64,000 bases of DNA from Geopsychrobacter sp. (GCA_012974425.1 JAAXQE010000095.1:519-64518); one strand, 5' to 3'. Counted from the stretch's first letter, positions 17,822 through 56,052 are shown. A program made the numbers and translations. Notes: a model not told the origin generated them from the letters alone.

Positions 17822-17898
17822 TTTGCCTCAGGCGCAAGCCGAACCCATTGGCTTGGTAACAGGATGAATAACACCACCGATTGCAGGGTATGAAAACG

Positions 17899-18741
17899 AT
17901 GAAATTTAACGGAACCGATTCTTATGTCGCAACAGCTGATCTGAACCTGGCAGTCAATGCCGCTATTACACTTGGGCGCCCCCTGCTGATCAAGGGAGAG
18001 CCTGGTACCGGCAAGACGATGCTGGCTGAAGAGGTGGCGAAAAGCCTCGATATGCCGCTGTTTCAGTGGCATGTCAAATCGACCACCAAGGCTAATCAGG
18101 GCCTGTATGAATATGATGCCGTTTCCCGTCTGCGCGATTCGCAGCTCGGTGATGAGCGGGTGCATGATATTGGTAATTATATCCTCAAAGGCAAGCTGTG
18201 GGAGGCCTTCGAGTCGGAGCAGCGGGCGGTGCTGCTGATCGATGAAATCGACAAAGCCGACATTGAGTTTCCCAACGACCTGTTGCAGGAACTCGACCGG
18301 ATGGAGTTCTATGTCTATGAGACCCGGCAGCTGATTAAGGCCAGACACCGGCCGGTGATTATCATCACCAGCAACAATGAGAAGGAGCTGCCCGATGCCT
18401 TTTTGCGTCGCTGCTTTTTCCACTATATTCGCTTCCCCGAGGCTGACACCATGGCGCAGATCGTTGATGTGCACTACCCCGGCATCAAGCAATCATTGCT
18501 CAAGGGTGCGCTGGAAACTTTCTTCGGCATGCGTGACGTGCCCGGTTTGAAGAAGAAGCCTTCGACCTCCGAACTGCTTGACTGGCTCAAGCTGCTGGTG
18601 GCTGAAGAGATCCCGGCTGAAGCCCTGCACAGCAAGCAGCCAGGCAAGTCGATCCCACCGCTGCACGGCGCGTTGCTGAAGAATGAGCAGGATCTTGGGT
18701 TGTTCGAACGGCTGGTCGGCATGACCCGACGTGGTAGATAA
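17899..18741 (+). CDS. MoxR-family AAA+ ATPase
   Basis: Walker A GEPGTGKT, Walker B LLIDEIDKAD and ELPDAFLRRC. Start could be 17890 or 17899. Confidence 0.9.
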   Translation: MKFNGTDSYVATADLNLAVNAAITLGRPLLIKGEPGTGKTMLAEEVAKSLDMPLFQWHVKSTTKANQGLYEYDAVSRLRDSQLGDERVHDIGNYILKGKLWEAFESEQRAVLLIDEIDKADIEFPNDLLQELDRMEFYVYETRQLIKARHRPVIIITSNNEKELPDAFLRRCFFHYIRFPEADTMAQIVDVHYPGIKQSLLKGALETFFGMRDVPGLKKKPSTSELLDWLKLLVAEEIPAEALHSKQPGKSIPPLHGALLKNEQDLGLFERLVGMTRRGR

Positions 18742-18752
18742 GGTCCGCACCT

Positions 18753-19940
18753 ATGTTGGTCGATTTTTTTCTGCAATTAAAGCAGGCCAAAGTGCCGGTT
18801 ACCGTCCGTGAATATTTGAGCCTGCTCGAAGCACTGGATAAACAGGTGGTCTGGGGCAGCGTTGAGGATTTTTACTATCTGGCGCGCCTCTGTCTGGTCA
18901 AGGACGAGACCCATTTTGACAAGTTTGACCGGGTTTTCGCCCAGTATTTTGAGGGAGTGACCGAACTCGGTGAAGAACTGGAAACACGAATCCCCGAGGA
19001 GTGGTTACGTAAACTGTCGGAACTGGTTCTTTCTGCCGAGGAGAAGGCCGAGATCGAAGCGCTTGGTGGTTTCGAGAAGCTGATGGAGACACTGAAGCAG
19101 CGGCTGGCGGAACAGAAAGAGCGTCATCAGGGGGGCAGCAAGTGGATCGGCACTGGCGGACGCTCCCCCTTTGGTGCCTATGGTTACAACCCCGAAGGGG
19201 TCAGGATCGGTCAAGAGGAGTCCCGACATCGCCGGGCGGTCAAGGTTTGGGACAAACGCGAGTTTAAAAATCTGGACGGTGCGGTGGAGTTGGGAACCCG
19301 CAATATCAAGATAGCCCTGCGCCGCTTGCGTCACTTCGCTCGCGAAGGGGCACCCGAAGTTCTCGACATGCCGGGTACCATCCGTGCCACGGCCAACAAT
19401 GCCGGCTATCTCGATTTGCAGCTGGTTCCAAAGCTGCACAACAAGATTAAGGTGCTGCTGTTTTTTGATGTCGGCGGCTCCATGGACGAACACATCAAGA
19501 TTTGCGAAGAACTTTTTTCCGCCGCCCGGGTTGAGTTCAAATACCTTGAGTATTTTTACTTTCACAATTTTGTCTACGAGAGTGTCTGGCGCGACAACCA
19601 ACGCTACCGGGCCGAACGGATCGATCTTTGGGATGTTATCCATACCTACGGTCCCGACTACAAGCTGATCTTTGTCGGTGACGCCGCCATGAGCCCCTAT
19701 GAAATTTCCATGGTCGGTGGCAGTGTCGAACATATGAACGACGAGGCCGGTCATGTCTGGGGGCAACGTTTGCTTGAAGCCTACAAGGATGCCATCTGGC
19801 TGAATCCGACCCCGCAAGGCTGGTGGCATTTTACCCAGTCGGTCGGCATGGTCAGACAAATTATGGGCGGGCGGATGTTCCCGCTGACACTTGAGGGGCT
19901 GGAGGAGGGGATTCGGTTGTTGAGCAAGACCTCCGTGTGA
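18753..19940 (+). CDS. VWA-domain partner of MoxR (CoxE-like)
   Basis: MIDAS-like FDVGGSM and VGDAAMSPYE motifs; directly follows the MoxR gene. Confidence 0.85.
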   Translation: MLVDFFLQLKQAKVPVTVREYLSLLEALDKQVVWGSVEDFYYLARLCLVKDETHFDKFDRVFAQYFEGVTELGEELETRIPEEWLRKLSELVLSAEEKAEIEALGGFEKLMETLKQRLAEQKERHQGGSKWIGTGGRSPFGAYGYNPEGVRIGQEESRHRRAVKVWDKREFKNLDGAVELGTRNIKIALRRLRHFAREGAPEVLDMPGTIRATANNAGYLDLQLVPKLHNKIKVLLFFDVGGSMDEHIKICEELFSAARVEFKYLEYFYFHNFVYESVWRDNQRYRAERIDLWDVIHTYGPDYKLIFVGDAAMSPYEISMVGGSVEHMNDEAGHVWGQRLLEAYKDAIWLNPTPQGWWHFTQSVGMVRQIMGGRMFPLTLEGLEEGIRLLSKTSV

Positions 19941-21890: not shown

Positions 21891-23048
21891 ATGCATTTCG
21901 GATTGACGGACGAACAACGGATGATGCAGGAGATGGCCAAGGATTTCGCTGCTAAAGAGATCGCACCTAACCTCAAGGATGATGAGGCGAACCACCGCTA
22001 CCGTCCCGAGCTGGTCAAGCATATGGCCGAGCTTGGTTTCTTCGGTTGCGCGCTGCCCGAAGAATATGGCGGTAACGGCTTCGGCTTTCTCGAGTCGGTG
22101 CTGTTGGCAGAACAGATCGCCAAGGTCAGTGGTTCCTGGCGTCTGCCTTTCAATATGCAGAATATCGGCCCCGCCATCACCGTCAACAAGTTCGGCAATG
22201 AAGAACAGAAAAAACGCTTCATCCCTGCCTGGGTCAATGCCGATTCCACCGGCTTTTTCGCCATCACCGAACCCAACTCAGGTTCTGACGTTGCCAGCAT
22301 GGGGACCACGGCTTCCGATTGCGGTGACCACTGGGAGCTCAACGGCCAGAAGATGTGGATCTCTAACGCTCATGTTGGCGACTGGGGGCTGGTTTACGCC
22401 TTCACCGACAAGAGCAAAAAATATAAAGGGATGACCTGCTTCGTCGTTAATCTCAAAGATAACGAGGGGATCGTCACTGCTCCGATTGAGACCAAACTTG
22501 GATTGTACTGTGCCCCCACCGGTGAAATCGCCTTCTCCAAGGCGAAGATCCCTAAGGATTCGATCTTGGGTGAAGTCGGCCAGGGTTTTCAGATCTGCAT
22601 GTGGCAGCTCAACAATACCCGGATCAGCTGTTCTGCCGGGGCGCTCGGTATCGCTGGTGGCGCCATCGACGCGGCGATTGAATACGCCAATGAGCGCATC
22701 CAGTTTGGTAAAAAGATCGGGGCTTATCAGATGATTCAGGCCCAGATCGCCGACATGGTCGCTGAGCATGAGGCCGCCAAACTGCTTGTCTACCGCGCCG
22801 CCTGGCTCAAGGATCAGGGCTTGCCAAATCAACAGCAAACCTCTATCGCCAAGCTCTTCGCTTCAGAAGCCGCCGTGCACGCCGCCAGCGATACGATGAA
22901 GATTTTTGGAAGTTATGGTTTCTCTACAGAGTACCCGGCCGAGCGTTTTCTGCGTGATGCGCAATCTCTGCGGGTGGTTGAAGGAACCAGCAATATCCAG
23001 AAGACCATCATCGCTGGTATCGCTATGGGCGACGTCGCGAACCGCTAA
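21891..23048 (+). CDS. Glutaryl-CoA dehydrogenase, non-decarboxylating (glutaconyl-CoA-forming) type
   Basis: Acyl-CoA dehydrogenase motifs. Val precedes the catalytic Glu (RVVEGTSNI), SWRLPFNM Arg is present and the protein ends ANR, as recalled for the Desulfococcus multivorans enzyme. Lies directly upstream of gcd genes. Confidence 0.8.
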   Translation: MHFGLTDEQRMMQEMAKDFAAKEIAPNLKDDEANHRYRPELVKHMAELGFFGCALPEEYGGNGFGFLESVLLAEQIAKVSGSWRLPFNMQNIGPAITVNKFGNEEQKKRFIPAWVNADSTGFFAITEPNSGSDVASMGTTASDCGDHWELNGQKMWISNAHVGDWGLVYAFTDKSKKYKGMTCFVVNLKDNEGIVTAPIETKLGLYCAPTGEIAFSKAKIPKDSILGEVGQGFQICMWQLNNTRISCSAGALGIAGGAIDAAIEYANERIQFGKKIGAYQMIQAQIADMVAEHEAAKLLVYRAAWLKDQGLPNQQQTSIAKLFASEAAVHAASDTMKIFGSYGFSTEYPAERFLRDAQSLRVVEGTSNIQKTIIAGIAMGDVANR

Positions 23049-23107
23049 CGGCGCTGAAATTTATTCAGTAACCTAAAGCTCCAGGCCTGGTCTGGATAGG
23101 AGAGTGA

Positions 23108-23299
23108 ATGATGGAGACCGACTGGTCCAAGGTTTTAGAGGTATTCGGCAGCGGCATTATCGGGGTCTTTCTGGTCATGTTTCTGCTGCAGATTCTGACG
23201 CAACTCAGTACCCGAATCATCGACTTTGTCGAGAACAAGAATAAGGACAAGACTCTGGTATCGGTCCCGCAAGAGGCCGTCGCCAAAGAGAAGGCCTAA
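23108..23299 (+). CDS. gcdD: Na+-decarboxylase small membrane anchor subunit (GcdD/OadG family)
   Basis: 63 aa with one hydrophobic segment (GIIGVFLVMFLLQIL); precedes the beta subunit. Confidence 0.7.
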   Translation: MMETDWSKVLEVFGSGIIGVFLVMFLLQILTQLSTRIIDFVENKNKDKTLVSVPQEAVAKEKA

Positions 23300-23310
23300 G
23301 GAGATTCACC

Positions 23311-24429
23311 ATGTTTGACATACTTCGCGAACTTATTTTTACCAGCGGTTTTGTCAGCCTGAGCGGCGGCAATATCATCATGTGGATGATCTCATTCGTT
23401 CTGCTCTATCTGGCGATAAAGAAGCAGTATGAACCGCTGCTGCTGCTGCCGATCGCCTTCGGTATCCTGGTCGTCAACCTGCCGTTGACCTTCCTCATGG
23501 ATCCCGAACACGGCCTGATCTGGTTCTTTTATCATTACGGGATTGAACTCGACATTATCCCGCCGTTGATCTTTCTAGGTCTCGGCGCGATGATCGATTT
23601 CGGTCCGCTGATCGCCAATCCGAAGACGCTGCTGCTGGGGGCGGGTGCTCAGGCCGGACTTTATGTCACCTTCTTCGCCGCTGTTCTGTTCGGTTTCGAT
23701 CTGCAGGAGGCCGGATCTATCGCCATCATTGGCGGCGCCGACGGCCCGACAACCATCTACCTGACCTCTAAACTTGCGCCCCATCTGCTCGGTGCGACCG
23801 CTGTCTCGGCCTACGCTTACATGGCCCTGGTCCCGATCATCCAGCCACCGATGATGAAGCTGTTGACCACCGATGCCGAGCGTAAGATCGTCATGACCAA
23901 ACTGCGCCCGGTCAGCAAGTTGCAGAAGATCTGTTTCCCGATCGTCACTGCCATGACCATCATGCTCGTCGTGCCGCCTGCGGCACCGCTGATCTCGATG
24001 CTGATGCTTGGCAATCTCTTTAAGGAATCGGGCGTCGTCGAACGTTTGACCAATGCCGCATCCAATGAGTTGATGAACGTCGTCACTATTTTTCTCGGGC
24101 TGTCGATCGGTGCCACCATGACCGCAGCGACTTTCCTTAGCCCCAAGGTGCTGTTCATCTTCTTCCTCGGTCTGTTTGCCTTCGCGATCAGTACCGGTGC
24201 CGGACTGCTCATGGCCAAGTTCATGAACCTGTTTCTTAAGGACAAGATCAACCCGCTGATCGGAGCGGCTGGTGTATCTGCGGTCCCGATGGCGGCCCGT
24301 TGTGTTCACAAGGTCGGATCAGAAGCCAACCGCCGCAACTATCTGCTGATGTACGCCATGGGACCGAATGTGGCTGGCGTTATCGGAACTGTGGTGGCGG
24401 CCGCGATCCTGCTGAAAAATCTTGGTTAA
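23311..24429 (+). CDS. gcdB: Na+-translocating carboxybiotin decarboxylase beta subunit
   Basis: YEPLLLLPIAFG, IIGGADGPTTIYL, IGAAGVSAVPMAAR and MGPNVAGVIG motifs. Confidence 0.93.
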   Translation: MFDILRELIFTSGFVSLSGGNIIMWMISFVLLYLAIKKQYEPLLLLPIAFGILVVNLPLTFLMDPEHGLIWFFYHYGIELDIIPPLIFLGLGAMIDFGPLIANPKTLLLGAGAQAGLYVTFFAAVLFGFDLQEAGSIAIIGGADGPTTIYLTSKLAPHLLGATAVSAYAYMALVPIIQPPMMKLLTTDAERKIVMTKLRPVSKLQKICFPIVTAMTIMLVVPPAAPLISMLMLGNLFKESGVVERLTNAASNELMNVVTIFLGLSIGATMTAATFLSPKVLFIFFLGLFAFAISTGAGLLMAKFMNLFLKDKINPLIGAAGVSAVPMAARCVHKVGSEANRRNYLLMYAMGPNVAGVIGTVVAAAILLKNLG

Positions 24430-24477
24430 AGCTGGTTTGTTGAGATTCTATTCATTTTCTAAAAAAGGAGAAAATCG

Positions 24478-24690
24478 ATGCCTGAACTGATTGCACCTAT
24501 AGCCGGTAATGTCTGGAAAGTTCTCGTCGCCGTGGGCGATAAGGTCGAGTTGGACGATGAATTGGTCATCCTCGAAGCCCTGAAGATGGAGACTCCCATC
24601 TACTGTGATGACGCAGGGACTGTCACAGAAATCAAGGTTAAAGAAGGCGATGCAGTCAATGAAGAGGACGTTCTGATCGTGATTGATTGA
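24478..24690 (+). CDS. gcdC: Stand-alone biotin carboxyl carrier protein
   Basis: 70-aa biotinoyl domain, APIAGNVWK...EALKME (variant of AMKM). Confidence 0.85.
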   Translation: MPELIAPIAGNVWKVLVAVGDKVELDDELVILEALKMETPIYCDDAGTVTEIKVKEGDAVNEEDVLIVID

Positions 24691-24752
24691 TCTTGACGTT
24701 TTTACTCGCTAAACCGGTTTTGTAACTCGATGTCACCGTGAAAGGGATAACC

Positions 24753-26510
24753 ATGTCACGCAAGCAAACACCATTGCGCCCGTACTTTGAAAAAATGGCC
24801 GAAATTGGCAAGGAACTCAGGGAAGGGGAGGTACGTCGCTCTCAGGCCAATGTTGAACTCGTCCGGGAACAGGAAGAGATCATCGCCAAGGAAATTCTGC
24901 GGGTGAAAAACGCAGGGATTCCAGCCGAAAAAATCCACCAGCGTGGCGGGATGACCATTCATGATCGACTCGAATACCTGGTCGACGCAGGAACCTGGTC
25001 TCCTCTGCACAGCCTCTACAATCCGAACGATAATGTTGAGGGCTGCACCGGGGTTGTCAACGGCATCGGCAAGATCGAGGGGAAATGGGCGGTCATTATC
25101 GGTTTTGACAACAAGGTCATGGCCGGGGCCTGGATCGCTGGGCAGGCCGAGAATATCCTGATGGTCACCGATATGGCCAAGCGCCTCAATGTGCCGCTGG
25201 TCTGGCTGACCAACTGCAGTGGCGTCAAGCTGATGGAACAGGAGACGGTCTATGCCGGGCGTCGTTCCAGTGGTGCGCCTTTTTATCGCCATGCCGATCT
25301 TAATCATCTGGGCATACCGATACTGAACGGCATCTACGGTACCAATCCGGCCGGTGGCGGCTATCAGGGGATCAGCCCGACCATCCTGCTGGCCCATGAC
25401 GACGCCAATATTGCAGTTGGCGGCGCTGGCATCGTTGGTGGCATGAATCCCAAGGGCTATATCGATGAGGAAGCTGCTCAGGCGCTGATTGAGGGGACCA
25501 AGAATTTCAAGGGGAAGGCTCCGGGTCGGGTTGAGACCCACTTCGACCAGACCGCCTATTTCCGCGAAGCCCATGATACCGAGCAGGGTGTCCTCGACGG
25601 CATCAAGGATTACATGCGGATGATGCCCGCTTACGACCCGATCATGTTCCGGGTCTCAGAACCCGCTGAACCGCGGCTGGCAGTTGAAGACCTCAACCTG
25701 CTCCTTCCTGCCAATCAGAAGCGGCCTTACGATGCGATTCAGATCCTGGCACGCCTCACCGACAACAGTGAATTCATGGAATATCGTCCCGAATACGGAC
25801 GTGAGGTTTTTGCCGGTATCGCCAAAATTGATGGTTTCCCGGTCGCCTTTATCGGCAACCAGCAGGGAGTCTTTCCCGGCTATCCCGATTACGCCAATGG
25901 CGAATATCCCGGTGTCGGCGGTAAACACTATCGTGAGGGGCTGATTAAGCAGGGTGAGTTTGTCACGCTCTGTGGCCGAGACAACCTGCCGATCATCTGG
26001 CTGCAGGACACCACCGGTATCGATGTCGGTGATCTTGCCGAGGAAGCGGAGTTGCTCGCACTGGGTCAGTCACTGGTCTATTCCATCGAGCAGACCGAGC
26101 TGTCGATGATGTGTGTTGTCCTGCGCAAAGGGACCGCTGCGGCCCATTACATCATGTGCGGTCCTCAGGCTAATAACAACAACGCCTTCACGCTCGGGAC
26201 TCCGCTGACTGAAATCAATGTCATGCACGGCGAAACTGCGGCTGCGGCCTCCTATGCGCGGCGCCTGGTCAAGGAGTCGGATGCAGGGAATGATCTGGCC
26301 CCGACGCTGGAGAAGATGAACCAGATGATTCAGGATTATAAGGACAAGTCGCAGCCAGCCTATTGCGCCAAGAGCGGCTTCGTCGACGAGATCGTCTCAC
26401 TGACTGATCTGCGTAAATATATTCAGGCCTTCACCGGGGCCAACTATCAGAACCCCAGATCGATCACTCCGGTACACCAGATGCTGCTGCCGCGCATCAT
26501 CAAGGGGTAA
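24753..26510 (+). CDS. gcdA: Glutaconyl-CoA decarboxylase carboxyltransferase alpha subunit
   Basis: DNKVMAGAWIAGQ, GTNPAGGGY, EIIAVGG-like NIAVGGAGIVGG, WLQDTTG and VMHGETAA segments typical of GcdA; RBS AAGGGA before ATG 24753. Confidence 0.88.
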   Translation: MSRKQTPLRPYFEKMAEIGKELREGEVRRSQANVELVREQEEIIAKEILRVKNAGIPAEKIHQRGGMTIHDRLEYLVDAGTWSPLHSLYNPNDNVEGCTGVVNGIGKIEGKWAVIIGFDNKVMAGAWIAGQAENILMVTDMAKRLNVPLVWLTNCSGVKLMEQETVYAGRRSSGAPFYRHADLNHLGIPILNGIYGTNPAGGGYQGISPTILLAHDDANIAVGGAGIVGGMNPKGYIDEEAAQALIEGTKNFKGKAPGRVETHFDQTAYFREAHDTEQGVLDGIKDYMRMMPAYDPIMFRVSEPAEPRLAVEDLNLLLPANQKRPYDAIQILARLTDNSEFMEYRPEYGREVFAGIAKIDGFPVAFIGNQQGVFPGYPDYANGEYPGVGGKHYREGLIKQGEFVTLCGRDNLPIIWLQDTTGIDVGDLAEEAELLALGQSLVYSIEQTELSMMCVVLRKGTAAAHYIMCGPQANNNNAFTLGTPLTEINVMHGETAAAASYARRLVKESDAGNDLAPTLEKMNQMIQDYKDKSQPAYCAKSGFVDEIVSLTDLRKYIQAFTGANYQNPRSITPVHQMLLPRIIKG

Positions 26511-26529
26511 AGGGCTTTTCTCGTTTAAA

Positions 26530-26573
26530 CCTTCTCCTTCAAGGGGGAAGGTAGCCGAAGGCCGGATGAGGGG
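26530..26573. repeat. Proteobacterial palindromic repeat (CCCTCATCCGGCCTTCGG...CCTTCCCCC..AAGGAGAAGG type)
   Basis: Two hairpins, CCTTCTCCTT-CA-AGGGGGAAGG and GCCGAAGGC. The minus strand reads [15 protein letters not shown], a translation typical of this repeat family. Confidence 0.7.
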
Positions 26574-26639
26574 AACCTTCCACAAGATTATGCCGCAGAT
26601 TCAGTTTGCTATGGAACACAACCCGCTAGAGGTGGACAC

Positions 26640-28700
26640 ATGAGCAGGGCGACAAAACCCTTAAGGATTACCGAACTTGTGCTGCGCGACGCACATCAGT
26701 CCCTGTTTGCGACCCGGATGCGCCTCGACGATATGCTTCCGATCGCCGAAAAACTGGACCAGGTCGGCTACTGGTCGCTTGAGACCTGGGGCGGTGCGAC
26801 CTTCGACTCCTGCATCCGTTATCTGGGTGAGGACCCCTGGGAGCGGCTGCGGGCTTTGAAGAAAGCCATGCCGAACACCCCGCAGCAGATGCTCTTTCGC
26901 GGCCAGAACATTCTTGGCTACCGTCACTATGCCGATGATGTTGTCGTAAAGTTTGTCGAGCGGGCGGCAGTGAACGGCATCGATGTATTCCGGGTCTTTG
27001 ACGCCATGAACGATCCGCGGAACCTGGAGACGGCCATCAAGGCGGTCATCCAGCAGGAGAAGCATGTCCAGGGTTGTATCTCCTATACCGTCAGTCCGGT
27101 TCATACCCTCGCCAAGTGGGTCGAACTGGCCAAGACGATAGAGGATATGGGGGCGCACTCGATCTGCATCAAGGATATGGCCGGCCTGATTACCCCTAGC
27201 GTCGCCTACGATATGGTCAAAAAGCTCAAAAAAGCGGTGGATGTCCCGATTCATATGCACTGTCATGCCACCACCGGCATGTCCACCTCCGCCTATCTGA
27301 AGGCGATCGAGGCTGGCATCGACGGCGTCGATACCGCTATCTCTTCGATGAGCCTGACCTACGCACACTCTCCGACTGAGACACTGGTCGCCATGACCGA
27401 GGGGACCGAGCGTGACACCGGTCTCGATCTGGCGCCGTTGCAGGAGATAGCTGCATACTTTCGCGAAGTCCGTAAGAAATACGCCAAGTTCGAAGGCGCA
27501 CTTAAGGGGATCGACTCGCGGATTATCACGGCCCAGGTTCCCGGTGGCATGCTGACCAATATGGAGAGCCAGCTGCGCGAGCAGGGAGCCAGTGACAAGA
27601 TCGATCAGGTGCTGGATGAGATTCCCTTCGTCCGCGAGGATCTCGGTTTTCTCCCGCTGGTGACTCCGACCTCACAGATTGTCGGTAGCCAGGCGGTCTT
27701 GAATGTCTTGGCGGGCGAGCGCTACAAGGCGGTCACCAAGGAAACCACCGCCGTCCTCAAGGGCGAATATGGCACCACTCCGGCACCGGTGAACAAGGAC
27801 GTTCAGACAAAAATTCTAAAGGGGGCGACACCGATCACCTGCCGTCCGGCCGATCTGCTTGAGCCCGAGGTGGAGAAGCTGACCGGCGAGTTGCGTGGCA
27901 TCGCTACCGAAAAGTCACTCAGTCTGGCTGATGATGTGATTGATGATGTACTGACCTATGCGCTCTTCCCGCAAGTGGGACTTAAATTTATCGAAAACCG
28001 CAATAATCCCGCTGCATTTGAGCCTGTTCCGACCGGCGTGGATGAACCTCCGGCAGTGTCGTCTGCTGCGATGACCGGTGGAGAGATCTACACCGTGACT
28101 GGTGGCGGAAAAAGTTTCATGGTTCAGGTTGCCGGTGCAGACGGTGCGGCTGCAGCTGCGGTCGCCGCGGCTGCAGGGGTTCCGGCTGGAACTGCCGCCG
28201 CAACCGGCATCGCAGACACTGTTGATGCTCATCTTGCCGGAAATATCTGGAAGATAGAGGTGACTCCAGGTCAGGAAGTTCAAGAAGGAGATCTGCTCTT
28301 CATCCTTGAAGCGATGAAGATGGAGCATGAAGTTGTGGCCGAGAAGTCAGGTGTGGTCGCCGAGATTCTGGTTAAGGAAGGCGATGCTGTTGATATCGGC
28401 GCGGCACTGCTCAGTTATGTTGGGGACGGAAGCAGCAGTGTTTCAGCCGCACCAGCCCAGGCGGTCGCAGCCCCTGTCGCTGAAGTTGCCAACGGGATTG
28501 TCGCACCGCTGGCCGGAAATATCTGGAAGCTGGAAGTTACCGCCGGTCAGCAGGTTGAAGAGGGCGACTTGTTGATTATTCTTGAGGCGATGAAAATGGA
28601 GAATGAAATCATCGCTGAACGTGACGGGATCGTTGGCCAAATTTTGATTGCTGAAGGTGATGCCGTTGATATCGGCCAGGTGCTGTTGACTCTGGACTGA
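26640..28700 (+). CDS. oadA: Oxaloacetate decarboxylase alpha-type carboxyltransferase with two tandem C-terminal biotinoyl domains
   Basis: [22 protein letters not shown] and HMHCHAT motifs; EAMKM occurs twice (28308-28322 and 28584-28598), separated by an Ala/Pro-rich linker. Confidence 0.88.
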
Positions 28701-28808
28701 TTAACTGCTCCGGGATTCTCTCATGCGTGAAGGGTCGTCACGGGCGCGGGCAGTCTTTCCAGACTGGAATCATGTGTTAGCCCAGCCTTTTCTATAAGGA
28801 AATAGCCT

Positions 28809-29669
28809 ATGTTTCGATCTGCTGCAGATTCAACTTCAGTTGAGGCGCATTATGCTCACCAGAATCTTGAAGATACGATCCTGAATGCTTTGGTTGATTC
28901 GGGAATCGATCTGGCACAGCTTAAAGTTGAAGATCTGGCGCCGATCGACGAATTTCACATCGGCGGGCGCAAGGCCACGCTCGAATTTGCCCGTCAGCTT
29001 GGCCTTGACGAAACGTTGCAGGTTCTCGATGTCGGCAGCGGTATCGGGGGCGCATCCCGTTGCCTTGCCGTAGAGTTTGGTTGTCAGGTGACCGGAATCG
29101 ATCTTTCCGGAGAGTATTGCAAGGTTGCAACTAAGCTGGCAGGGCGTCTCGGTCTTGATTCCAGTGTCACTTATCAACACGGAAGCGCCCTTGAGATGCC
29201 CTTTGCCGATAACAGCTTCGATCTTCTCTGGACGCAACACGCGGCGATGAATATCGCGGACAAGGCCGGACTCTACGCCGAGATGTGGCGCGTTTTAAAA
29301 CCTGGCGGCAGGCTGGCAATTTATGATGTTCTCGCAGGTGAGGGCGGACCAATTCACTTTCCGGTTCCCTGGGCACGTGGGCCGGGAATCAGCTTTTTGA
29401 TCAGCCCGCAACAGCTACGCGACCAGCTTGAGGTGGCAGGTTTCGAGATTATCAGTTGGCAGGACAGCACCGAAAAGGGTCGTTCCTGGTTTCGTCGTAT
29501 GGGTGCTAAAATCGGTTCGAAAGGGCTACCGCGCCTGGGAATCCATCTGTTGCTGGGAGAAGATTTTAGACTGATGGCGAACAATCAGGTCCGGAACCTG
29601 GAAGAAGGCCGCATCGCGCTGATAGAAACAATCGTCCAGCGGCCATCACTCGCGGATGTTCAGCAATGA
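28809..29669 (+). CDS. Class I SAM-dependent methyltransferase
   Basis: VLDVGSGIGG, GIDLS, GSALEMPFADNSFD and RVLKPGG motifs. Confidence 0.88.
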   Translation: MFRSAADSTSVEAHYAHQNLEDTILNALVDSGIDLAQLKVEDLAPIDEFHIGGRKATLEFARQLGLDETLQVLDVGSGIGGASRCLAVEFGCQVTGIDLSGEYCKVATKLAGRLGLDSSVTYQHGSALEMPFADNSFDLLWTQHAAMNIADKAGLYAEMWRVLKPGGRLAIYDVLAGEGGPIHFPVPWARGPGISFLISPQQLRDQLEVAGFEIISWQDSTEKGRSWFRRMGAKIGSKGLPRLGIHLLLGEDFRLMANNQVRNLEEGRIALIETIVQRPSLADVQQ

Positions 29670-29832
29670 GACCTGAATCAGCAAGTAGCCGACCTTGGCG
29701 ATAAAGAGTATTGAGCGAATAAATATTCGATGATTATTAGTATGAGGTGTTAATTGAGTCAGGTAATCAACATTGTCAAATCTTCATTTTCCCCGCATCG
29801 CTCTGCGAACGGGTACCATTTGGAGAACTGTT

Positions 29833-30630
29833 ATGGATTCTGAAGATAAAACTGCAGGTTTACAGCAGAAAGAACGCAAGTTTGTTACAGCTCTTGCGCG
29901 AGGGCTTGAGATCTTGAGCTGTTTTCATGCCAGCGACCGTTTCCTCGGCAACAAACAGATCGCCGAACGAACAGGGTTGCCTATAACGACTGTCACAAGG
30001 CTTACCTTCACCTTGACCGAACAGGGTTTTCTGAGCTTTCAGCCGAATATAAATAAATATCGCCTTGGCACTGCAGTTCTCAGCCTGAGCTATTCTTTGC
30101 TGGCCCAGATGGATGTTCGTCGTATCGCACGTCCCCTGATGCAGGCCCTTGCCGAGCATACGCAAGCGGCGGTTAACATCGGGGTGCGGGATCGGTTGGA
30201 TATGGTTTATGTCGATACCTATCGCAATGCTTCGAGCTACGCTGTCCAGCTTGATGTCGGATCGCAACTGCCGGTCGCCTCAACCTCCATGGGCAGGGCC
30301 TGTCTGGTTGCACTCCCGGAACAGGAACGGCTGGAACTTATGGAGGAGATCCGCAAGCAGGATGAACACAACTGGCCGCGAATCAAGGACGCCATCGACC
30401 AGTCACTTATTGACTACCGTGAGCGAGGCTACTGCCTGTCGCTCGGGGATTGGCGCAAGGAGGTTCACGCTATTGCCGTACCTCTGCTGCCGGAAGACGG
30501 CTCTGAAATTATCGTCTTCAGTTGCAGCGGGGCATCCTTTCAATTAAGTCCCGAGGCGATTGAAACCGATGTCGGTCCCCGCCTGCTTAACCTGGTCGGG
30601 AACGTGAAGACCGCTTTGAGTCGTCTGTAG
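29833..30630 (+). CDS. IclR-family (PcaR/PobR-like) regulator
   Basis: FVTALARGLEIL and HTH IAERTGLPITTVTRLTFTL, plus STSMGRA; RBS GGAGA before ATG 29833. Confidence 0.9.
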   Translation: MDSEDKTAGLQQKERKFVTALARGLEILSCFHASDRFLGNKQIAERTGLPITTVTRLTFTLTEQGFLSFQPNINKYRLGTAVLSLSYSLLAQMDVRRIARPLMQALAEHTQAAVNIGVRDRLDMVYVDTYRNASSYAVQLDVGSQLPVASTSMGRACLVALPEQERLELMEEIRKQDEHNWPRIKDAIDQSLIDYRERGYCLSLGDWRKEVHAIAVPLLPEDGSEIIVFSCSGASFQLSPEAIETDVGPRLLNLVGNVKTALSRL

Positions 30631-37934: not shown

Positions 37935-40259
37935 TTAGCCTCCTGCAACGAAGGAAATCAGACTGATTTCACTGCCGTCAGGAATTTCAATTCGGTCTTC
38001 TCCGGCAAGAATCATCTTGTCGTTGATGACAATAAGCAGGTTCGGATCGTCCAGGGTTTTAATCGACTCTGGCAGCTTGCTGCGCAGCAACTGGCGAAGC
38101 TCTCCCAGGTGTTCGACCTGCTCATCAATGATAATGCTCTGTTCCGGGCTGCCTGGGAGTGTGCAGGGCAGTTTGACCCTGATGCTGTAACCGGTGACGA
38201 TCTTCGCGAGCCGGGCGTGCCAGTCGAGTTCGGGCGCTCCTTCACGATTGAGTCCGCTAATCTTGTAAAAACGTTGCTTGAGAGCCTCAAACTGTTCCCT
38301 GTTGATTTTTTCCCCCTTGAAGGGCCCGACCGTGATTGGCTCATCGAACCAGCGGTCTGGCAGACTGTCATCTTCTGCCCGCAGCCCCAGGCGGTAGTTG
38401 ATCATCCGCTCCAGTCCGGTGATGTTGCGACCAATTTCGTCCAGTTTTTCGGCATCGAACGGCAACCGGGTCAGCTCATTGAGATGGTCGGAAAAGTCTG
38501 TCAGATCAGGGGTTGATGGCGAGTTGAACAGTTTGGTGTTGAAACGGCACATGCCGACCGAATCCCCGGCGGCAAAAGTATTTTCGCAGCGCCTGACCGC
38601 GTACTCCTTCCCCTCGTACGAGGTTGGTTCAGGGGAGACGACACCGCCGTAGAGGGCGGTTTTGAAGGCGGCATCATCGTTGATGCGGGCGTTAATCTCC
38701 AGGGTGGCCCGATTGCGCAGATGATCCATACCGCGGGTGGCAACCGCCAGCCCAAGGGCAAACGCCTTGAGAATCCGGGCGTCGTGAGGATCGGACTGGA
38801 ACAGCCCCTTGGAGGCCATACAGTATTTTAGTGCTTCTGCTGGATACTTTCCCTGTTCGACTGCACGGCTGGAGGTGGCGATAGTGTCGCCGAAACCTTG
38901 CCGTTTTGCCGTCAGGAACAGTAACTGCTCAATGACCGGATAGTTCCCCCAGCTCAAATCCAGTCCACCGGTGATCTGCTGATCGATGATACCGCGCTGA
39001 AAAAGTTCCATCGCCCAGGCGATGGCGCTGCCGGTGCTGGAGGCATCGAGCGCCAGATCGTTGATAATGTTGTTCAGTCGCAGAACCTGTTCCGGTTCCT
39101 TAATGCCGATATTCGGACCGAATTTGCCGACGGTGATGTACTCCGGGCCTTCGCCCTTGTCGTACTTGTCGAATTTTCCGTCGTTGTTGATACCGTTGTA
39201 GGTGCGTTGTTTGTGATGCTCCAGACTGCTCTGCTCTTTATCGTAACTGGCGTTACCGCTCAGACCGGTCAGAGCGCTGGCCCCCCAGCCGCCTTTACCG
39301 CCGGGAAGCATGTCGTTGTTAGCCCGGCAACCGACCGGGCACTGGAAACAGCGGCTCATGTTCGGTCGGTAGGGATCGAAGTTGTCGGCGTCGAGACTAT
39401 CGTGCCAGGTGGTCTCCTGGTTGTTCTTGGTGCCCATGGCGCAGAGAACCCGGCTCGGTTTGTAGAGAAAGGGCGTACCGACCTTTTTCAGCGCATTCTG
39501 CACTACGCTGGCAGACAGGATCTTTTTGCCAAGTTCCCGGTTTTTCTGTTTGTGTGCTGCAGAAAGTGCAAGCCCCGGCGGTTTGCCCTGAATCATGATT
39601 GCTTTCAGGTTCAACGAACCCATTTTGGCGCCACCACCACCTCTGGCCCAGATTGCTTTTTCTCCTGCCATGATACCGCTGCAGAGGACCTGGTTTTCAC
39701 CGGCACTGCTGATCCTCGCCATAGCCATATCTGTTCTTTCGTGGCAGTTAAAATCTCTCTCAATTGACTTGGTGAACTCGATGTTGTCCATGCCGTAATA
39801 GGGGCTGGCATCGATAAATCTGACTTGCTCCTGATCGATTTTTAGCATGGTCCATTGCGGATTACGACCATAGAGGACCAGATGGTCGTAGCCGTGACGT
39901 TTGAGATAGGTGGGGAAGAAGTCACCAGCGTTGCTGTCGAGGATCGCCCGGCTTTCCGGTGAACGGCTGGTGACGTTGCCGCGGGTAGCTGCCGGCATGC
40001 TGCCGGTTAGCACGCCGGCGCCGAAGATTAATGGGACTTCGGGGTCAAGGGCATCCATTTCTTCCTGCAGCAGGTTGTAGAGCAGGTACATGTTTCCGCC
40101 GCGCCCGGCCAGAAAATGCTGGACCGCGTCAAGCGGCAGGAAGCCTCGCTGGCTGCTGCGCCGTTCAAGGTCGACAAACAGCACCGCACCCTGGCTTGGG
40201 TATTGTGGTTCGGCATGCATCCGGTTGAGAAGTCGTGTAACCCGCTGTCTGATATCCAA
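37935..40259 (-). CDS. Tungsten aldehyde oxidoreductase (AOR)-family protein fused to C-terminal MoaD/ThiS-like domain
   Basis: GRGG, TSRSP, RGGGGAKMGSLNLKAI, CFQCPVGC, GPEY and RGMDH motifs; C-terminal beta-grasp domain ending ISFVAGG*. Confidence 0.88.
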   Translation of the reverse strand: MDIRQRVTRLLNRMHAEPQYPSQGAVLFVDLERRSSQRGFLPLDAVQHFLAGRGGNMYLLYNLLQEEMDALDPEVPLIFGAGVLTGSMPAATRGNVTSRSPESRAILDSNAGDFFPTYLKRHGYDHLVLYGRNPQWTMLKIDQEQVRFIDASPYYGMDNIEFTKSIERDFNCHERTDMAMARISSAGENQVLCSGIMAGEKAIWARGGGGAKMGSLNLKAIMIQGKPPGLALSAAHKQKNRELGKKILSASVVQNALKKVGTPFLYKPSRVLCAMGTKNNQETTWHDSLDADNFDPYRPNMSRCFQCPVGCRANNDMLPGGKGGWGASALTGLSGNASYDKEQSSLEHHKQRTYNGINNDGKFDKYDKGEGPEYITVGKFGPNIGIKEPEQVLRLNNIINDLALDASSTGSAIAWAMELFQRGIIDQQITGGLDLSWGNYPVIEQLLFLTAKRQGFGDTIATSSRAVEQGKYPAEALKYCMASKGLFQSDPHDARILKAFALGLAVATRGMDHLRNRATLEINARINDDAAFKTALYGGVVSPEPTSYEGKEYAVRRCENTFAAGDSVGMCRFNTKLFNSPSTPDLTDFSDHLNELTRLPFDAEKLDEIGRNITGLERMINYRLGLRAEDDSLPDRWFDEPITVGPFKGEKINREQFEALKQRFYKISGLNREGAPELDWHARLAKIVTGYSIRVKLPCTLPGSPEQSIIIDEQVEHLGELRQLLRSKLPESIKTLDDPNLLIVINDKMILAGEDRIEIPDGSEISLISFVAGG

Positions 40260-47701: not shown

Positions 47702-48274
47702 TCAAGCCGCCGCGCCGCCGGCCAGAGCCTTTAAGTTGACCTCTCTCCCTTTGCCTTGCGAGAGTTGCTTAACAACGGCGGTAATGACTTCTTCAGTGAT
47801 CGGCAGCTGTTTCATGACTGTCCCGACCATCACCATATTGACCGCTTTGCCATTGCCGGCTTCGCGGGCGATCGAAAGGGCATCAATGCCCAGCGCTTCG
47901 GTGCAGACCGCGTCGATCTGTTGCTCCACATCGGCCGGGTAAATCGCCAGGCCAGCGGCCACAGTACTTGGGTTGATGGTCACCTTGTTGTAGACCAGCC
48001 GCCCTCCGGGCTTGAGGTAGTGGCTATAGCGCAAGGCTTCCAGCGGTTCGAAGGAGATCAGCAGGTCGGCGGTGCCGGGCATGACCACCGGTGAACTGAC
48101 CTGGTCGCCGATGCGGACAAAGCTGATGACGCTGCCACCACGCTGGGCCATGCCGTGCACTTCGTTCTGCTTGACGTCCATGCCACTGGCCAGAGCGCTT
48201 TCGGAGAGAACCTTGGAGGCCATCAGGACTCCCTGTCCACCGACACCGGCAATTACGATATTAAAGATTTGCAT
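47702..48274 (-). CDS. iorB: Indolepyruvate:ferredoxin oxidoreductase beta subunit
   Basis: IAGVGGQGVL, EVHGMAQRGGSV and FEPLEALR motifs; start at MQIFNIV (48274), overlapping the iorA stop. Confidence 0.9.
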   Translation of the reverse strand: MQIFNIVIAGVGGQGVLMASKVLSESALASGMDVKQNEVHGMAQRGGSVISFVRIGDQVSSPVVMPGTADLLISFEPLEALRYSHYLKPGGRLVYNKVTINPSTVAAGLAIYPADVEQQIDAVCTEALGIDALSIAREAGNGKAVNMVMVGTVMKQLPITEEVITAVVKQLSQGKGREVNLKALAGGAAA

Positions 48275-50033
48275 TGTTAGCTCCCTCCAGTTCGTGCATC
48301 GCGTCGAATTTACACATCTGTGTGCAGACGCCGCAGCCATTACAGATATTGGGGTCGACCCGTACGGTCTGCTTGTCGCCACTGCCGGTTAGTCCCAGTG
48401 CCATGCAGGCCACCCTGAGACAGGCGCGGCAACCGGTGCATTTGTCGGTCTCGACAGTCATGGCCGGTTTGCGGATTTTGTAACGCAGGATGCAGGGATT
48501 TTTGTCGATCAGCACATAGGGGCCTGGTGTTTCGAGACCTTTTTTGATTGCTGCTTCGGTCGCTTTCAGGTCGTAGGCATCCAGTTCAACGACGTTGTCG
48601 ATACCCAGCGCCTTGACCAGCGGGGCAATCTCGACCTGACGGGCGGGGAGGCCCTGAAGGGTTTTGCCGGTGCCGGGATTCTCCTGGCCGCCGGTCATGC
48701 CGGTGGTGCGGTTATCCATGATGATGACCAGGGCGTTGCCGGTGTTGTAAGCCATGCTGAGCAGGCCGGTCATCCCGGAATGGAAGAAGGTCGAGTCGCC
48801 GATAACGGCAACCGGTTTTTCCCGACCGCCGGCCATCTCGTTGACCTTGGCAATGCCGTGGGCGGCGCTGATGCTGGCGCCCATGTCGATACAGGTGTGC
48901 ATGGCGCCCATCGGCGGCAGTGCGCCCAGGGTGTAGCAGCCGATGTCACCGGAGACGAAGACCTTCAGTTTGCTGAGAATGGTAAACAGGCCGCGGTGCG
49001 CGCAGCTGGGACAGAACACCGGCGGACGCTGCGGCAGTCCTTCGACCGGGGCGGTTCCGGTTGCTACCGGCTGATCCTCGGCGGCAGAACGGATGATGTC
49101 GGTGTTGACCTCGCCGCAAAAAGAGATCTTGTCTTTGCCGACGTCAACGTTGATGCCCATGGCGCGGATCTGCTCTTCGAAGATACCGTCCAGTTCCTCG
49201 ACAATCATCAAACGATCGACCTTGCTGGCAAACTCGCGGATTTTGTTTTCGGGCAGCGGGTGGACCATGCCAAGCTTCAAAATCGAGGCGTTGGGGTAGG
49301 TCTCCTTGACGTGGTGGTAGGCGACCCCACAGGTGATAATGCCGAGCTCGGTATCCTTTAGTTCCACCCGGTTCAGTGGGCTGGTCTCGGCAAATTCCTT
49401 GAGACGCAGCAGGCGCTCTTCAATTTCAGCGTGCTTGATTCTGCCGAAGTTCGGTAACATGACATACTTCGGCACGTTCTTGTCCAGGTCGCGGATCTGC
49501 GGTTCGATCTTTTCCTGTTGCTCGACGATCCCTTTGGCGTGTGAAATGCGGGTTGTGGTCCGCAGCATCAGCGGGGTATCGAACTGTTCGGAAATCTCAA
49601 AACCGGCTTTGACGAAATCGTAGGCCTCTTGAGAGTCGGACGGATCAAGCATTGGAACCTTGGCGAACTTGGCGTAGTTGCGGCTGTCCTGCTCGTTCTG
49701 CGACGAGTGCATACCGGGATCGTCGGAGACCATCAGGATCAGCCCAGCGTTGACACCGGTCTGGGTCAGGGTCATCAGCGCATCGGCAGCCACGTTGACG
49801 CCAACGTGCTTCATGGTAGCGATGGTGCGTCCGCCGGCGATCGAGGCGCCGATGGCCGACTCGAGAGCGACCTTCTCGTTTGGAGCCCACTCGCAGTAAA
49901 CCTTACCGTGGCGGGCGACCTCTTCAAGGGTTTCGGTACTGGGCGTGCCGGGATAACCGGAGGCGAAAACCCCACCAAAGTCGGTGAAGCCCAGAGCGAT
50001 TGCTTCGTTGCCCGAGATTATTTTTTTCATCAA
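48261..50033 (-). CDS. iorA: Indolepyruvate:ferredoxin oxidoreductase alpha subunit
   Basis: GNEAIA, GYPGTPSTE, SSQNEQDSR, RPPVFCPSCAHR, TPP motif GDSTFFHSG...DN and C-terminal 2x[4Fe-4S]. Confidence 0.93.
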   Translation of the reverse strand: MMKKIISGNEAIALGFTDFGGVFASGYPGTPSTETLEEVARHGKVYCEWAPNEKVALESAIGASIAGGRTIATMKHVGVNVAADALMTLTQTGVNAGLILMVSDDPGMHSSQNEQDSRNYAKFAKVPMLDPSDSQEAYDFVKAGFEISEQFDTPLMLRTTTRISHAKGIVEQQEKIEPQIRDLDKNVPKYVMLPNFGRIKHAEIEERLLRLKEFAETSPLNRVELKDTELGIITCGVAYHHVKETYPNASILKLGMVHPLPENKIREFASKVDRLMIVEELDGIFEEQIRAMGINVDVGKDKISFCGEVNTDIIRSAAEDQPVATGTAPVEGLPQRPPVFCPSCAHRGLFTILSKLKVFVSGDIGCYTLGALPPMGAMHTCIDMGASISAAHGIAKVNEMAGGREKPVAVIGDSTFFHSGMTGLLSMAYNTGNALVIIMDNRTTGMTGGQENPGTGKTLQGLPARQVEIAPLVKALGIDNVVELDAYDLKATEAAIKKGLETPGPYVLIDKNPCILRYKIRKPAMTVETDKCTGCRACLRVACMALGLTGSGDKQTVRVDPNICNGCGVCTQMCKFDAMHELEGANNANL

Positions 50034-50199
50034 TCTTATCCTTCTTTCGTCTATGTGGTTGATCGACTGAACGCATCCTGCGTCGGCGTGGGTCGGTTGG
50101 GCCGCATTCCGCTAGCCTGGTTTGCGGCCCGAATCCGTCTCTTAACCGGTTGTACCGGAGCCTGGCCGATTTCGATTTCGATTTCTTGTTCTGCCGCCG

Positions 50200-51609: not shown

Positions 51610-51713
51610 GGTTAGCTCCTTCTGTCGTGGGTTTGTTTCACATTCACTGTTTTAGGTTTCTGGTAAATCGATTGTTAGCAGCGCAGACGACTGCGTCGGG
51701 CTACCGGTATTCC

Positions 51714-55045: not shown

Positions 55046-55200
55046 GATCTCTCCCCAAACGTCTTTGTTTAGTCGATCTCAAGCCGTATAGTTTTGCTGT
55101 CCTGAGTCGAAAAGGTACAGTATTGGAAAACTTTTAATTCGCCATATCAAACTCGAAAGGGGAGGTGCCCCTTTGTTGTTTACTGAAAAATCCTGTCACT

Positions 55201-56010
55201 CTATGCCAGCTTTTGGCCTGGCATATCTTCGGTTGCCGCATCCAGGGCATAGAGCGCTGCGCCATGCGCTCCGGTGAGCTGAGGGAACTCGGTCAGCAGA
55301 ACCGGCCGACCGATCAGCTCCTCGGCCATCTCCACCAGATAGGGGTTGTGGGCGACCACGCCGCCGCACAAAACAACTTTATCGGTCAGCGAATCCATCT
55401 CCAGAACCCGTTGGATCATTGAGTAGAAGATCCCCTTGATGATGGCAGTGACCGGTTTGCCGTGACGGATGTTCTCCAGCACCTCGGTGGCGGAGAAAAC
55501 CGTACAATAGCTGCCGAGCTTGATCATCTCTGTCGCCTGGTGGGCCAGGTTGTTCATCTCGTCGAGCGGGATGTCGAGCCGGCTCGACATCTCCTCAAGA
55601 AAGGCTCCGGTTCCGGCGGCGCATTTTCGATTCATTTTAAAACTGTCGCGGCGCCCCTCGGTATCCAGCTTGATGATTTTGTTGTCCTGCCCACCGATAT
55701 CAATGATGGTGATCGCTTCTGTAAAACTGTAGTAACAGCCTTTGGCGTGGCAGCCGATTTCAGTTTTGCTCTTTTCGGTAACAAAAGCGACGTTGTTGCG
55801 GCCATAGCCGGTAGCGACGGCGTCGGAAATGTCACTCCGGTTGGCACCAGCCAGTTCCAGCGAGGCATCCAGGCAAAGCGCAGCCGTCGCGGCAAAATCG
55901 GTACCCGACTTTTTGACTGCGTGTCCGAGCAGCACCCCGTGGCGGTCGATAACCGCCACCTTGGTGCGTGATGCTCCCATGTCGAGTCCGACATAGACTG
56001 GCTGTGCCAT
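55201..56010 (-). CDS. ATP-dependent dehydratase activator (HgdC/FldI archerase family)
   Basis: GLDMGASRTK, ATGYGR, IIDIGGQDNK, MNRKCAAGTG, CTVFS and GGVA motifs. Confidence 0.92.
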   Translation of the reverse strand: MAQPVYVGLDMGASRTKVAVIDRHGVLLGHAVKKSGTDFAATAALCLDASLELAGANRSDISDAVATGYGRNNVAFVTEKSKTEIGCHAKGCYYSFTEAITIIDIGGQDNKIIKLDTEGRRDSFKMNRKCAAGTGAFLEEMSSRLDIPLDEMNNLAHQATEMIKLGSYCTVFSATEVLENIRHGKPVTAIIKGIFYSMIQRVLEMDSLTDKVVLCGGVVAHNPYLVEMAEELIGRPVLLTEFPQLTGAHGAALYALDAATEDMPGQKLA

Positions 56011-56052
56011 ACTTGCCTCGTTTTTTCTGCTGTGGATTACGCCTGGGTCCGC

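Follow-up and report, generated by a model that had tools for sequence, protein, structure and literature searches.

A predicted Na+-pumping glutaconyl-CoA decarboxylase cluster from Geopsychrobacter sp. with a possible glutaconyl-CoA:pyruvate transcarboxylase branch

We analyzed a stretch of 64,000 nucleotides from Geopsychrobacter sp. (GCA_012974425.1, JAAXQE010000095.1:519-64518; hereafter the window), in which the components of a predicted Na+-pumping glutaconyl-CoA decarboxylase (Gcd) are encoded together with a second carboxyltransferase of the OadA type. Nine close-set genes, separated by spacers of 11-129 nucleotides, occupy the plus strand from position 21891 to 30630, and those up to position 29669 follow the order acd, small membrane subunit, beta subunit, 70-residue biotin carrier, gcdA, oadA and methyltransferase. 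An initial annotation of this DNA had reported a gcdD-gcdB-gcdC-gcdA series followed in the same orientation by an OadA-type gene between positions 23108 and 28700, and this is the arrangement that we found, with all of these genes on the plus strand. Pfam scans identified bamB-I-type genes of a class II benzoyl-CoA reductase upstream of the cluster, and thiolase, hbd, crotonase and an Etf system downstream of it; the setting is the lower benzoyl-CoA pathway. Likewise, the earlier statement that the window holds no second beta or gamma gene and no biotin carboxylase agreed with Pfam scans of all other long open reading frames (ORFs) and with tblastn searches using the cluster proteins, which revealed no second OAD_beta, no OAD_gamma, no biotin carboxylase/PycA and no further carboxyltransferase in the 64 kb. 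Claims of absence for this organism cover this window only.

The first gene of the cluster, acd (21891-23048, plus strand), codes for a putative glutaryl-CoA dehydrogenase (GDH) of the non-decarboxylating lineage. Its top match among PDB sequences was the non-decarboxylating GDH of Desulfococcus multivorans (3mpi, 345 bits), with decarboxylating GDHs at about 178 bits, and it reached 444 bits against NCBIfam NF045552 GlutCoADH_Des, slightly under the cut-off of 470. The predicted product of Acd is free glutaconyl-CoA. In nearly all loci with a GcdA of at least 76% identity, acd lies immediately 5' of gcdA or of the pump module. The gcdA gene itself (24738-26510, plus strand) starts with GTG and encodes a PF01039 protein of 590 residues, the predicted glutaconyl-CoA:biotin carboxyltransferase; an alternative start at 24753, used in the public gene call, gives 585 residues. 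GcdA matched 3gf3 (707 bits) and 1pix (683 bits) over its full length, and other carboxyltransferases (propionyl-, methylcrotonyl-CoA) with at most 130 bits. An assignment to the methylmalonyl-CoA 12S type was rejected, with 78 bits to 1on3 and 130 bits to mmdA TIGR01117 (cut-off 999). For orthologues of GcdA, carboxylation of biotin from glutaconyl-CoA is established (PMC7145394).

Three genes between acd and gcdA make up the pump module. The first (23108-23299, plus strand) encodes a small membrane subunit of 63 residues with one transmembrane helix and a short, charged, variable tail. It had no Pfam match at E<=0.001 and nothing meaningful among PDB sequences; its weak top match was PF04277 OAD_gamma (E 0.009, 17 bits, cut-off 27; profile positions 4-55 of 76). 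This family was the weak top match for the protein and four homologues alike (E 0.002-0.04), and in each case the match lay within profile positions 2-55 of 76, its N-terminal two-thirds only. The helix is kept with 47-82% identity in every pump-containing locus, in proteins of 52-70 residues with variable tails. The small subunit stops 20-25 residues past the helix, and this tail is unconserved even among loci that bear oadA. In one related locus (L168, 4391-5710) the small subunit is fused in frame to beta in a 439-residue ORF, and this natural fusion speaks for the small protein being a partner of beta. Judged by its sequence, it is a truncated OadG/GcdD-like protein.

The beta subunit (GcdB-like, 372 residues; 23311-24429, plus strand) is the predicted membrane carboxybiotin decarboxylase and Na+ translocator. 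It scored 511 bits against PF03977 OAD_beta, 491 bits against TIGR01109 (cut-off 190.6) and 388 bits against Salmonella OadB (6iva), and when it was aligned with 6iva, the conserved stretches IIGGADGPT, YxYMALVP and GVSAVPMAAR were seen around the catalytic Asp and the residues of the Na+ site. Its nearest named relatives are those of Geothermobacter and Malonomonas (91-92% identity), followed by proteins of Desulfosporosinus, Thermoanaerobacteraceae, Syntrophomonadaceae and Desulfobacterales (69-75%); gammaproteobacterial OadB is more distant (44-59%, among the matches listed). The mini biotin carrier (24478-24690, plus strand) consists of a biotinyl domain only, with 70 residues and a biotinylation motif EALKME around Lys36, and lacks the N-terminal anchor and the Ala/Pro linker of clostridial GcdC. 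It matched PF00364 Biotin_lipoyl with 62.8 bits and NF006079 with 94.1 bits (cut-off 95). The names gcdD and gcdC, previously given to the genes of the small subunit and the carrier, are thus too strong, since both proteins are minimal and have neither the linkers nor the anchors of their clostridial counterparts. Sodium-coupled decarboxylation is the function predicted for this module. We also observed that the carrier motif EALKME, in place of the usual EAMKME, is followed by a conserved PIY and recurs in the carrier homologues of L002, L088-L092, L099 and L166-L168, and that the OadA domains retain EAMKME; EALKME may be a mark of carrier specialisation in pump modules.

The oadA gene (26640-28700, plus strand), from which the beta gene is separated by the carrier gene and gcdA, encodes an OadA-type carboxyltransferase of 686 residues. 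The protein exceeded the cut-offs of NCBIfam oadA TIGR01108 (932 bits, cut-off 756.5) and PRK14040 (1126 bits, cut-off 892). Residues 1-456 (26640-28007) constitute the carboxyltransferase domain, a 5S-like TIM barrel that aligned without gaps with V. cholerae OadA (2nx9, 679 bits) and reached 514 bits against the 5S subunit of transcarboxylase (1rqb). Positions D17, K178, H207 and H209, which have metal-binding or catalytic roles in 2nx9, are conserved. Residues 457-523 (28008-28208) align as an association-domain-like beta hairpin, and a poly-Ala linker follows. At the C-terminus lie two biotinyl domains with 65% identity to each other, of which the first (28209-28421; EAMKMEHE, Lys560) is the counterpart of the one domain in canonical OadA and the second (28482-28700; EAMKMENE, Lys652) is an extra one. 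The initial annotation was right in calling an OadA-type gene, but overlooked its two biotinyl domains. An identical OadA is present on a contig from a marine-sediment metagenome; by their nearest named relatives OadA and beta point to the Desulfuromonadales, and the source is related to iron reducers.

Two biotin motifs were found in 119 of the 120 best OadA homologues, the nearest named relative being from Geopsychrobacter (82%). By contrast, the second biotin domain was present in none of 45 gammaproteobacterial OadA proteins that were followed by oadB or located on short contigs, among the matches listed. This gammaproteobacterial set, which served as a control only, came from a genome scan with generic back-translated patterns (EAMKME etc.), and the matches listed were mostly single-biotin gammaproteobacterial OadA together with PycB-like and Firmicutes proteins. 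In a neighbor-joining tree of the carboxyltransferase domain, which carries no bootstrap values and is indicative only, the sampled two-biotin proteins formed one clade, sister to gammaproteobacterial one-biotin OadA with oadB following. The hairpin motif TVTGGG occurs only in the two-biotin clade and is identical in members with and without a pump. Since beta is nearer to non-gammaproteobacterial betas and the two-biotin clade is sister to OadA of the oxaloacetate decarboxylase (OAD) type, the pump was most likely acquired together with the gcd module, OadA being an addition of OAD ancestry. An identification of OadA as PycB was rejected (PRK14042, 613 bits, cut-off 1182; PRK14041, 604 bits, cut-off 734), and PycB-like proteins fell outside the clade. 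A two-biotin OadA of the same clade adjoins a MaoC/MFE-2-type hydratase gene in L169 (6985-10076).

The genomic surroundings of the closest OadA relatives, together with 80 metagenome loci around GcdA relatives, were compared by mapping the window proteins with tblastn; the loci are designated here by L numbers. Among loci with a GcdA of at least 76% identity, five architectures were defined. Type A, with the order acd-small-beta-bccp-gcdA-oadA-methyltransferase, comprises the window, Geopsychrobacter L002, L166, L167 and L168. Type B keeps this order without oadA (L088, L089, L090, L092, L099 and probably L124). In type C, acd-gcdA-oadA occurs with no pump genes nearby (G. daltonii L004, C. 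bremense L170, G. argillaceus L171, L091, L093, L094), and a permuted form, acd-oadA-gcdA, is found in the betaproteobacterium Georgfuchsia toluolica (L005, with 27-nucleotide spacers) and in L103. Type D combines acd-gcdA-bccp with a distant beta of about 30% identity (e.g. L095-L100, L105, L107, L109, L114-L116, L118, L119), and type E has acd-gcdA alone (L086, L101, L102, L108, L110, L111, L122). Type D contigs, which are mostly from water-column metagenomes, carry a distinct pump lineage joined to the same GcdA family.

Because the order found in the window is shared by four more genomes or contigs, with OadA proteins 74-86% identical, the arrangement is, on this comparison, more than would be expected by chance. 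Types A and B were intermixed in a neighbor-joining tree of GcdA, which indicates that oadA was gained or lost among very close relatives. The oadA-less loci L088, L089, L090, L092 and L099, in which GcdA is 86-92% identical to that of the window, imply that the pump module with its mini carrier suffices without OadA. These same two architectures bear on the possibility of a shared pump, in which OadA would be a true Na+-pump alpha subunit that uses the beta and small subunits of GcdA, so that the module could be driven by glutaconyl-CoA or by oxaloacetate and, in reverse, a Na+ gradient could drive pyruvate carboxylation. Several features speak for it, namely the score of OadA above the oadA equivalog cut-off, its gapless 679-bit match to V. 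cholerae OadA with the association-domain hairpin retained, the sister position of its clade to gammaproteobacterial oadA-oadB operons, the single beta subunit in 64 kb and the five loci that keep pump and oadA together. In OAD, however, it is the C-terminal segment of the small subunit that binds OadA and connects it to OadB (PMC7145394). Here the small subunit consists of the helix and a short unconserved tail only, and these tails are alike in loci with oadA (type A) and without it (type B). The short variable tail in both types and the fusion in L168 point to a beta-associated helix rather than an OAD-type tether for OadA. Moreover, the same OadA clade persists in loci without a pump, beta is nearer to Firmicutes and Desulfobacterales betas than to OadB, and benzoate oxidation would have no oxaloacetate intermediate in need of decarboxylation. 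We therefore consider a shared pump unlikely, although it would be compatible with carboxyl transfer between the two enzymes, because any carboxybiotin could reach beta. The earlier suggestion of one membrane module for two carboxyltransferases is weakened in the same way, by the lack of a tether for OadA and by a beta that is nearer to non-OadB proteins.

Eight pump-less acd/gcdA/oadA loci were found, five of them in Geobacteraceae, one in Georgfuchsia toluolica and two on further contigs, one of which ends inside oadA; beta, small subunit and mini carrier were not nearby in any of them. In agreement with this, the genome paper on G. bemidjiensis reported that homologues of beta, gamma and delta are missing from the entire genome (PMC2996986), and the 120 best beta homologues, down to 69% identity, included no entry named Geobacter, Geotalea, Citrifermentans or Geomonas, most of these matches being without names. 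In pump-less genomes that have no carboxybiotin decarboxylase, pyruvate would be the sole carboxyl acceptor, and two carboxyltransferases with neither a carboxylase nor a decarboxylase would be a transcarboxylase by construction. A gene for a MaeB-type malic enzyme (malic, Malic_M, PTA_PTB) lies directly 3' of oadA in each of the five Geobacteraceae loci of type C whose sequence extends far enough downstream (L004, 12205-14472; L170, 10353-12692; L171, 10229-12496; L093, 5767-8028; L094, 5752-6159), and in none of the five type A loci, as judged from locus mapping and, for the window, from Pfam scans.

A role of OadA mainly as carrier or tether would mean that it serves Gcd with a docking hairpin and a pair of biotin domains on long arms, while the carboxyltransferase of OadA is idle or regulatory. 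The mini carrier and small subunit of the window, which lack the anchors and Ala/Pro linkers that clostridial GcdC and GcdD possess, would fit such a role, as would the long Ala-rich linkers, found within the cluster in OadA only, and the 2010 paper on G. bemidjiensis brought up the two-biotin feature in this sense (PMC2996986). Nevertheless, the carboxyltransferase domain aligns without gaps with an active enzyme, and all catalytic and metal positions that were checked are conserved throughout the clade, which would not be expected of an idle domain. In addition, pump-only loci work with the mini carrier alone, and pump-less genomes would leave carboxybiotin without an exit unless a second catalytic site were present. 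We give this explanation little credence.

We found gcdA, acd and oadA adjacent in 13 loci from Desulfuromonadales, Geobacteraceae and a betaproteobacterium, even where gene order is permuted and spacers measure 27 nucleotides. This speaks against OadA being an unrelated neighbor with partners elsewhere, either a PycA-type biotin carboxylase, with which it would form a two-subunit pyruvate carboxylase, or a separate oadGB. Such partners could lie outside the sequence in view, which is 64 kb of the genome; L169 has a like OadA away from gcdA, and PRK09282, a PycB model at the domain level, was matched. Yet the PycB equivalog models gave scores far under their cut-offs, PycB-like proteins lie outside the OadA clade and a biotin carboxylase gene is absent from the 64 kb, so that we regard an unrelated neighbor as very improbable.

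The transcriptional organization of the locus was assessed from gene positions and from the gcdA-oadA spacer (26511-26639, 129 nucleotides). A pattern scan of its plus strand found no promoter-like or terminator-like site; the spacer contains a 10-bp hairpin without a U tract, and its fold is unremarkable (z -0.12). The oadA gene is inserted between gcdA and the methyltransferase gene that elsewhere directly follows gcdA, and in L002 and L166 the methyltransferase starts 1-4 nucleotides past the oadA stop. Co-transcription of oadA with the cluster is thus supported only indirectly, by gene position, by the 1-4-nucleotide gaps in L002 and L166 and by a terminator-free spacer. The methyltransferase (28809-29669, plus strand; S-adenosylmethionine-dependent, Methyltransf_11/25), the conserved last gene of the cluster, had only generic class-I matches among PDB sequences; it stands after oadA in pump-containing loci, after gcdA in pump-only loci and after maeB in Geobacteraceae.

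Collectively, the comparative evidence clearly favors a functional link between GcdA and OadA with transcarboxylation as its probable core. We propose that the cluster encodes a Na+-pumping glutaconyl-CoA decarboxylase with a transcarboxylase branch, in which glutaconyl-CoA and pyruvate would give crotonyl-CoA and oxaloacetate, a proposal that we hold with roughly balanced confidence. The cluster would then be a branched, biotin-dependent carboxyl-transfer system of the lower benzoyl-CoA/glutaryl-CoA pathway. In a first step Acd would oxidize glutaryl-CoA to free glutaconyl-CoA, and in a second step GcdA would transfer the carboxyl group to biotin, for which three biotin domains are on offer, one on the 70-residue carrier and two on OadA. 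From there, the carboxybiotin of GcdA seems to have two interchangeable sinks, both encoded in the window. At the first exit, beta and its small helix partner would decarboxylate carboxybiotin with export of Na+; at the second, the carboxyltransferase domain of OadA would hand the carboxyl group to pyruvate, forming oxaloacetate. This second exit would constitute a glutaconyl-CoA:pyruvate carboxyltransferase, anaplerotic without ATP. In the organism of the window the bulk of the flux would probably pass through the pump, with OadA diverting carboxyl groups to ATP-free anaplerosis. In pump-less Geobacteraceae the second exit would be the sole one, and malic enzyme would return oxaloacetate/malate to pyruvate. 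The half-reaction of OadA can run both ways, which would let oxaloacetate supply the pump as well. What the sequences show are the gene identities, the domain content, and the conservation of catalytic positions and of synteny; we infer that GcdA loads the biotin domains of OadA, which way the flux runs and that the genes are co-transcribed. Decarboxylation of oxaloacetate has a free-energy change similar to that of glutaconyl-CoA, so that carboxyl transfer between the two would be near equilibrium, like that of the classical transcarboxylase. For glutaconyl-CoA, the standard free-energy change of decarboxylation is about -30 kJ/mol (PMC7145394).

Several points weigh against this proposal. 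The flux through glutaconyl-CoA during benzoate oxidation is far above any anaplerotic need, which makes the added value of a branch uncertain where the pump is present. A role of OadA as oxaloacetate decarboxylase together with beta is possible, given that OadA is nearest to true Na+-pump alpha subunits, with 59-69% identity to the gammaproteobacterial proteins (among the matches listed), and given its score above the oadA cut-off. The two-biotin OadA of L169 has no gcdA within 8 kb, and may have a different partner or belong to a dispersed system; L086 is without even the pump module between acd and gcdA. Furthermore, absence of a gene from short metagenome contigs does not prove its absence from the genome, and the sequencing runs that hold the locus are DNA metagenomes only, with no RNA run among them. 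The transfer of CO2 from glutaconyl-CoA to pyruvate, one of the two possibilities that the initial annotation had raised, is thus favored by the comparative loci, although sequence alone gives no proof of it; the other, a common membrane module, would be compatible with such transfer.

Both possibilities are combined in a wider and rather unlikely scheme, a three-way biotin hub in which one Na+ pump would be common to GcdA and OadA through the three biotin domains, with routes to Na+ pumping, to ATP-free oxaloacetate and to a linkage between pyruvate/oxaloacetate and the Na+ gradient. For pump-less Geobacteraceae, this scheme would join the transcarboxylase with malate dehydrogenase and NADP-dependent malic enzyme in a decarboxylation-driven transhydrogenation from NADH to NADPH.

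Other genes of the window and its relatives were noted as well. Directly after the methyltransferase, an IclR/PcaR-type gene (29773-30630, plus strand; PF09339 and PF01614; TIGR02431 142 bits, under the cut-off) is a candidate regulator of the cluster, and acd is flanked by an IclR gene in L002, L004, L166, L167 and L171. The methyltransferase closes acd/gcdA clusters that have the pump, OadA, both or neither (L086), with homologues in L002 (12063-12908), L166 (10054-10896), L004 (14542-15387) and L089 (5414-6244). A pair of genes for an AAA ATPase and a VWA (CoxE-like) protein lies upstream of the cluster (17881-19940, plus strand) and, as a conserved neighbor, downstream of the methyltransferase in Geopsychrobacter L002 (13131-15170). 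Two genes of the aldehyde:ferredoxin oxidoreductase family are present, of which one (48-1631, plus strand) is cut by the window start and heads the bamB-I-like cluster, and the other (37935-40259, minus strand) encodes a 774-residue paralogue on the opposite strand, adjoining a TRAP transporter. A block on the minus strand (47702-56925) carries an IOR-like 2-oxoacid:ferredoxin oxidoreductase, an acetyl-CoA hydrolase/transferase, an ADP-forming acyl-CoA synthetase, one HGD-D dehydratase subunit, a BcrAD/BadFG-type activator ATPase and an IclR regulator, and could be a pathway of the 2-hydroxyacyl-CoA dehydratase type.

To our knowledge, a transcarboxylase has been established biochemically only in propionibacteria, as their methylmalonyl-CoA:pyruvate enzyme. 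If our proposal is true, the glutaconyl-CoA:pyruvate carboxyltransferase would be a second, independently assembled transcarboxylase and a new enzyme activity. The version with pump and OadA in the window shows that such modules are mixed and matched in nature. These findings are of relevance for the energy and carbon balance of sediments and aquifers in which aromatic compounds are degraded anaerobically, and cultured organisms exist for both architectures, namely Geopsychrobacter electrodiphilus with the pump, and G. daltonii and G. bemidjiensis without it. The idea that GcdA and OadA cooperate is in part an older one, as Aklujkar et al. (2010) had flagged the pump-less trio and the two biotin domains and deemed cooperation worth investigating (PMC2996986). 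In the literature searched we found general reviews, and no experimental or bioinformatic follow-up to that paper on Gbem_1453/1454 or on a glutaconyl-CoA:pyruvate transcarboxylase. As far as can be told, the pump-plus-OadA architecture, the modular pattern of types A, B and C and the complementary distribution of pump and malic enzyme are new.

Compared with the known Gcd (GcdABCD) of Acidaminococcus fermentans and Clostridium symbiosum, the cluster likewise encodes together an orthologue of GcdA, an OAD_beta protein of about 372 residues, a biotin carrier and a one-helix small subunit. It differs in its bare 70-residue carrier with EALKME, clostridial GcdC having an N-terminal anchor, an Ala/Pro linker and a biotinyl domain (PMC7145394), and in a small subunit without the C-terminal region of GcdD that ties alpha to the membrane part. 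It also differs in the second carboxyltransferase, OadA, and in its context, which is anaerobic aromatic degradation with a non-decarboxylating GDH, whereas the known systems serve glutamate fermentation. With OadGAB of Vibrio cholerae, Klebsiella and Salmonella it shares an OadA that has a gapless carboxyltransferase, a score above the oadA cut-off, and a colinear hairpin and first biotin domain. However, OadA has here two biotin domains, the canonical protein having one; oadA is not followed by oadB, which occupies that place in 40 of 45 gammaproteobacterial loci among the matches listed; there is no OadG with an OadA-binding tail, and the OadA clade occurs also in pump-less genomes. As for PycAB, OadA is not a PycB equivalog by score and the 64-kb window has no PycA biotin carboxylase.

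The closest described locus is Gbem_1452-1454 (acd-gcdA-oadA) of G. (Citrifermentans) bemidjiensis, in which the three genes are the same and OadA again has two domains for biotin attachment (PMC2996986); its sister species C. bremense has the same locus. That genome is without beta, gamma and delta, and its relatives have malic enzyme after oadA, whereas in the window the genes for small subunit, beta and carrier separate acd from gcdA, and malic enzyme is absent. The 12S/5S/1.3S transcarboxylase of Propionibacterium freudenreichii (EC 2.1.3.1) likewise combines a PF01039 acyl-CoA carboxyltransferase, a 5S-type subunit (514 bits, 1rqb) and biotin carriers without a biotin carboxylase, so that the two systems are built on one logic. 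Its acyl-CoA partner is the methylmalonyl-CoA 12S subunit, to which GcdA, the partner here, has only 78 bits (1on3). In addition, the carriers are here fused in tandem to the 5S-like subunit in place of a separate 1.3S protein, and the window has a carboxybiotin-decarboxylase pump as well, which the pump-less relatives do not. In its predicted function, the cluster resembles a hybrid between the Na+ pump of Gcd and the transcarboxylase of propionibacteria.

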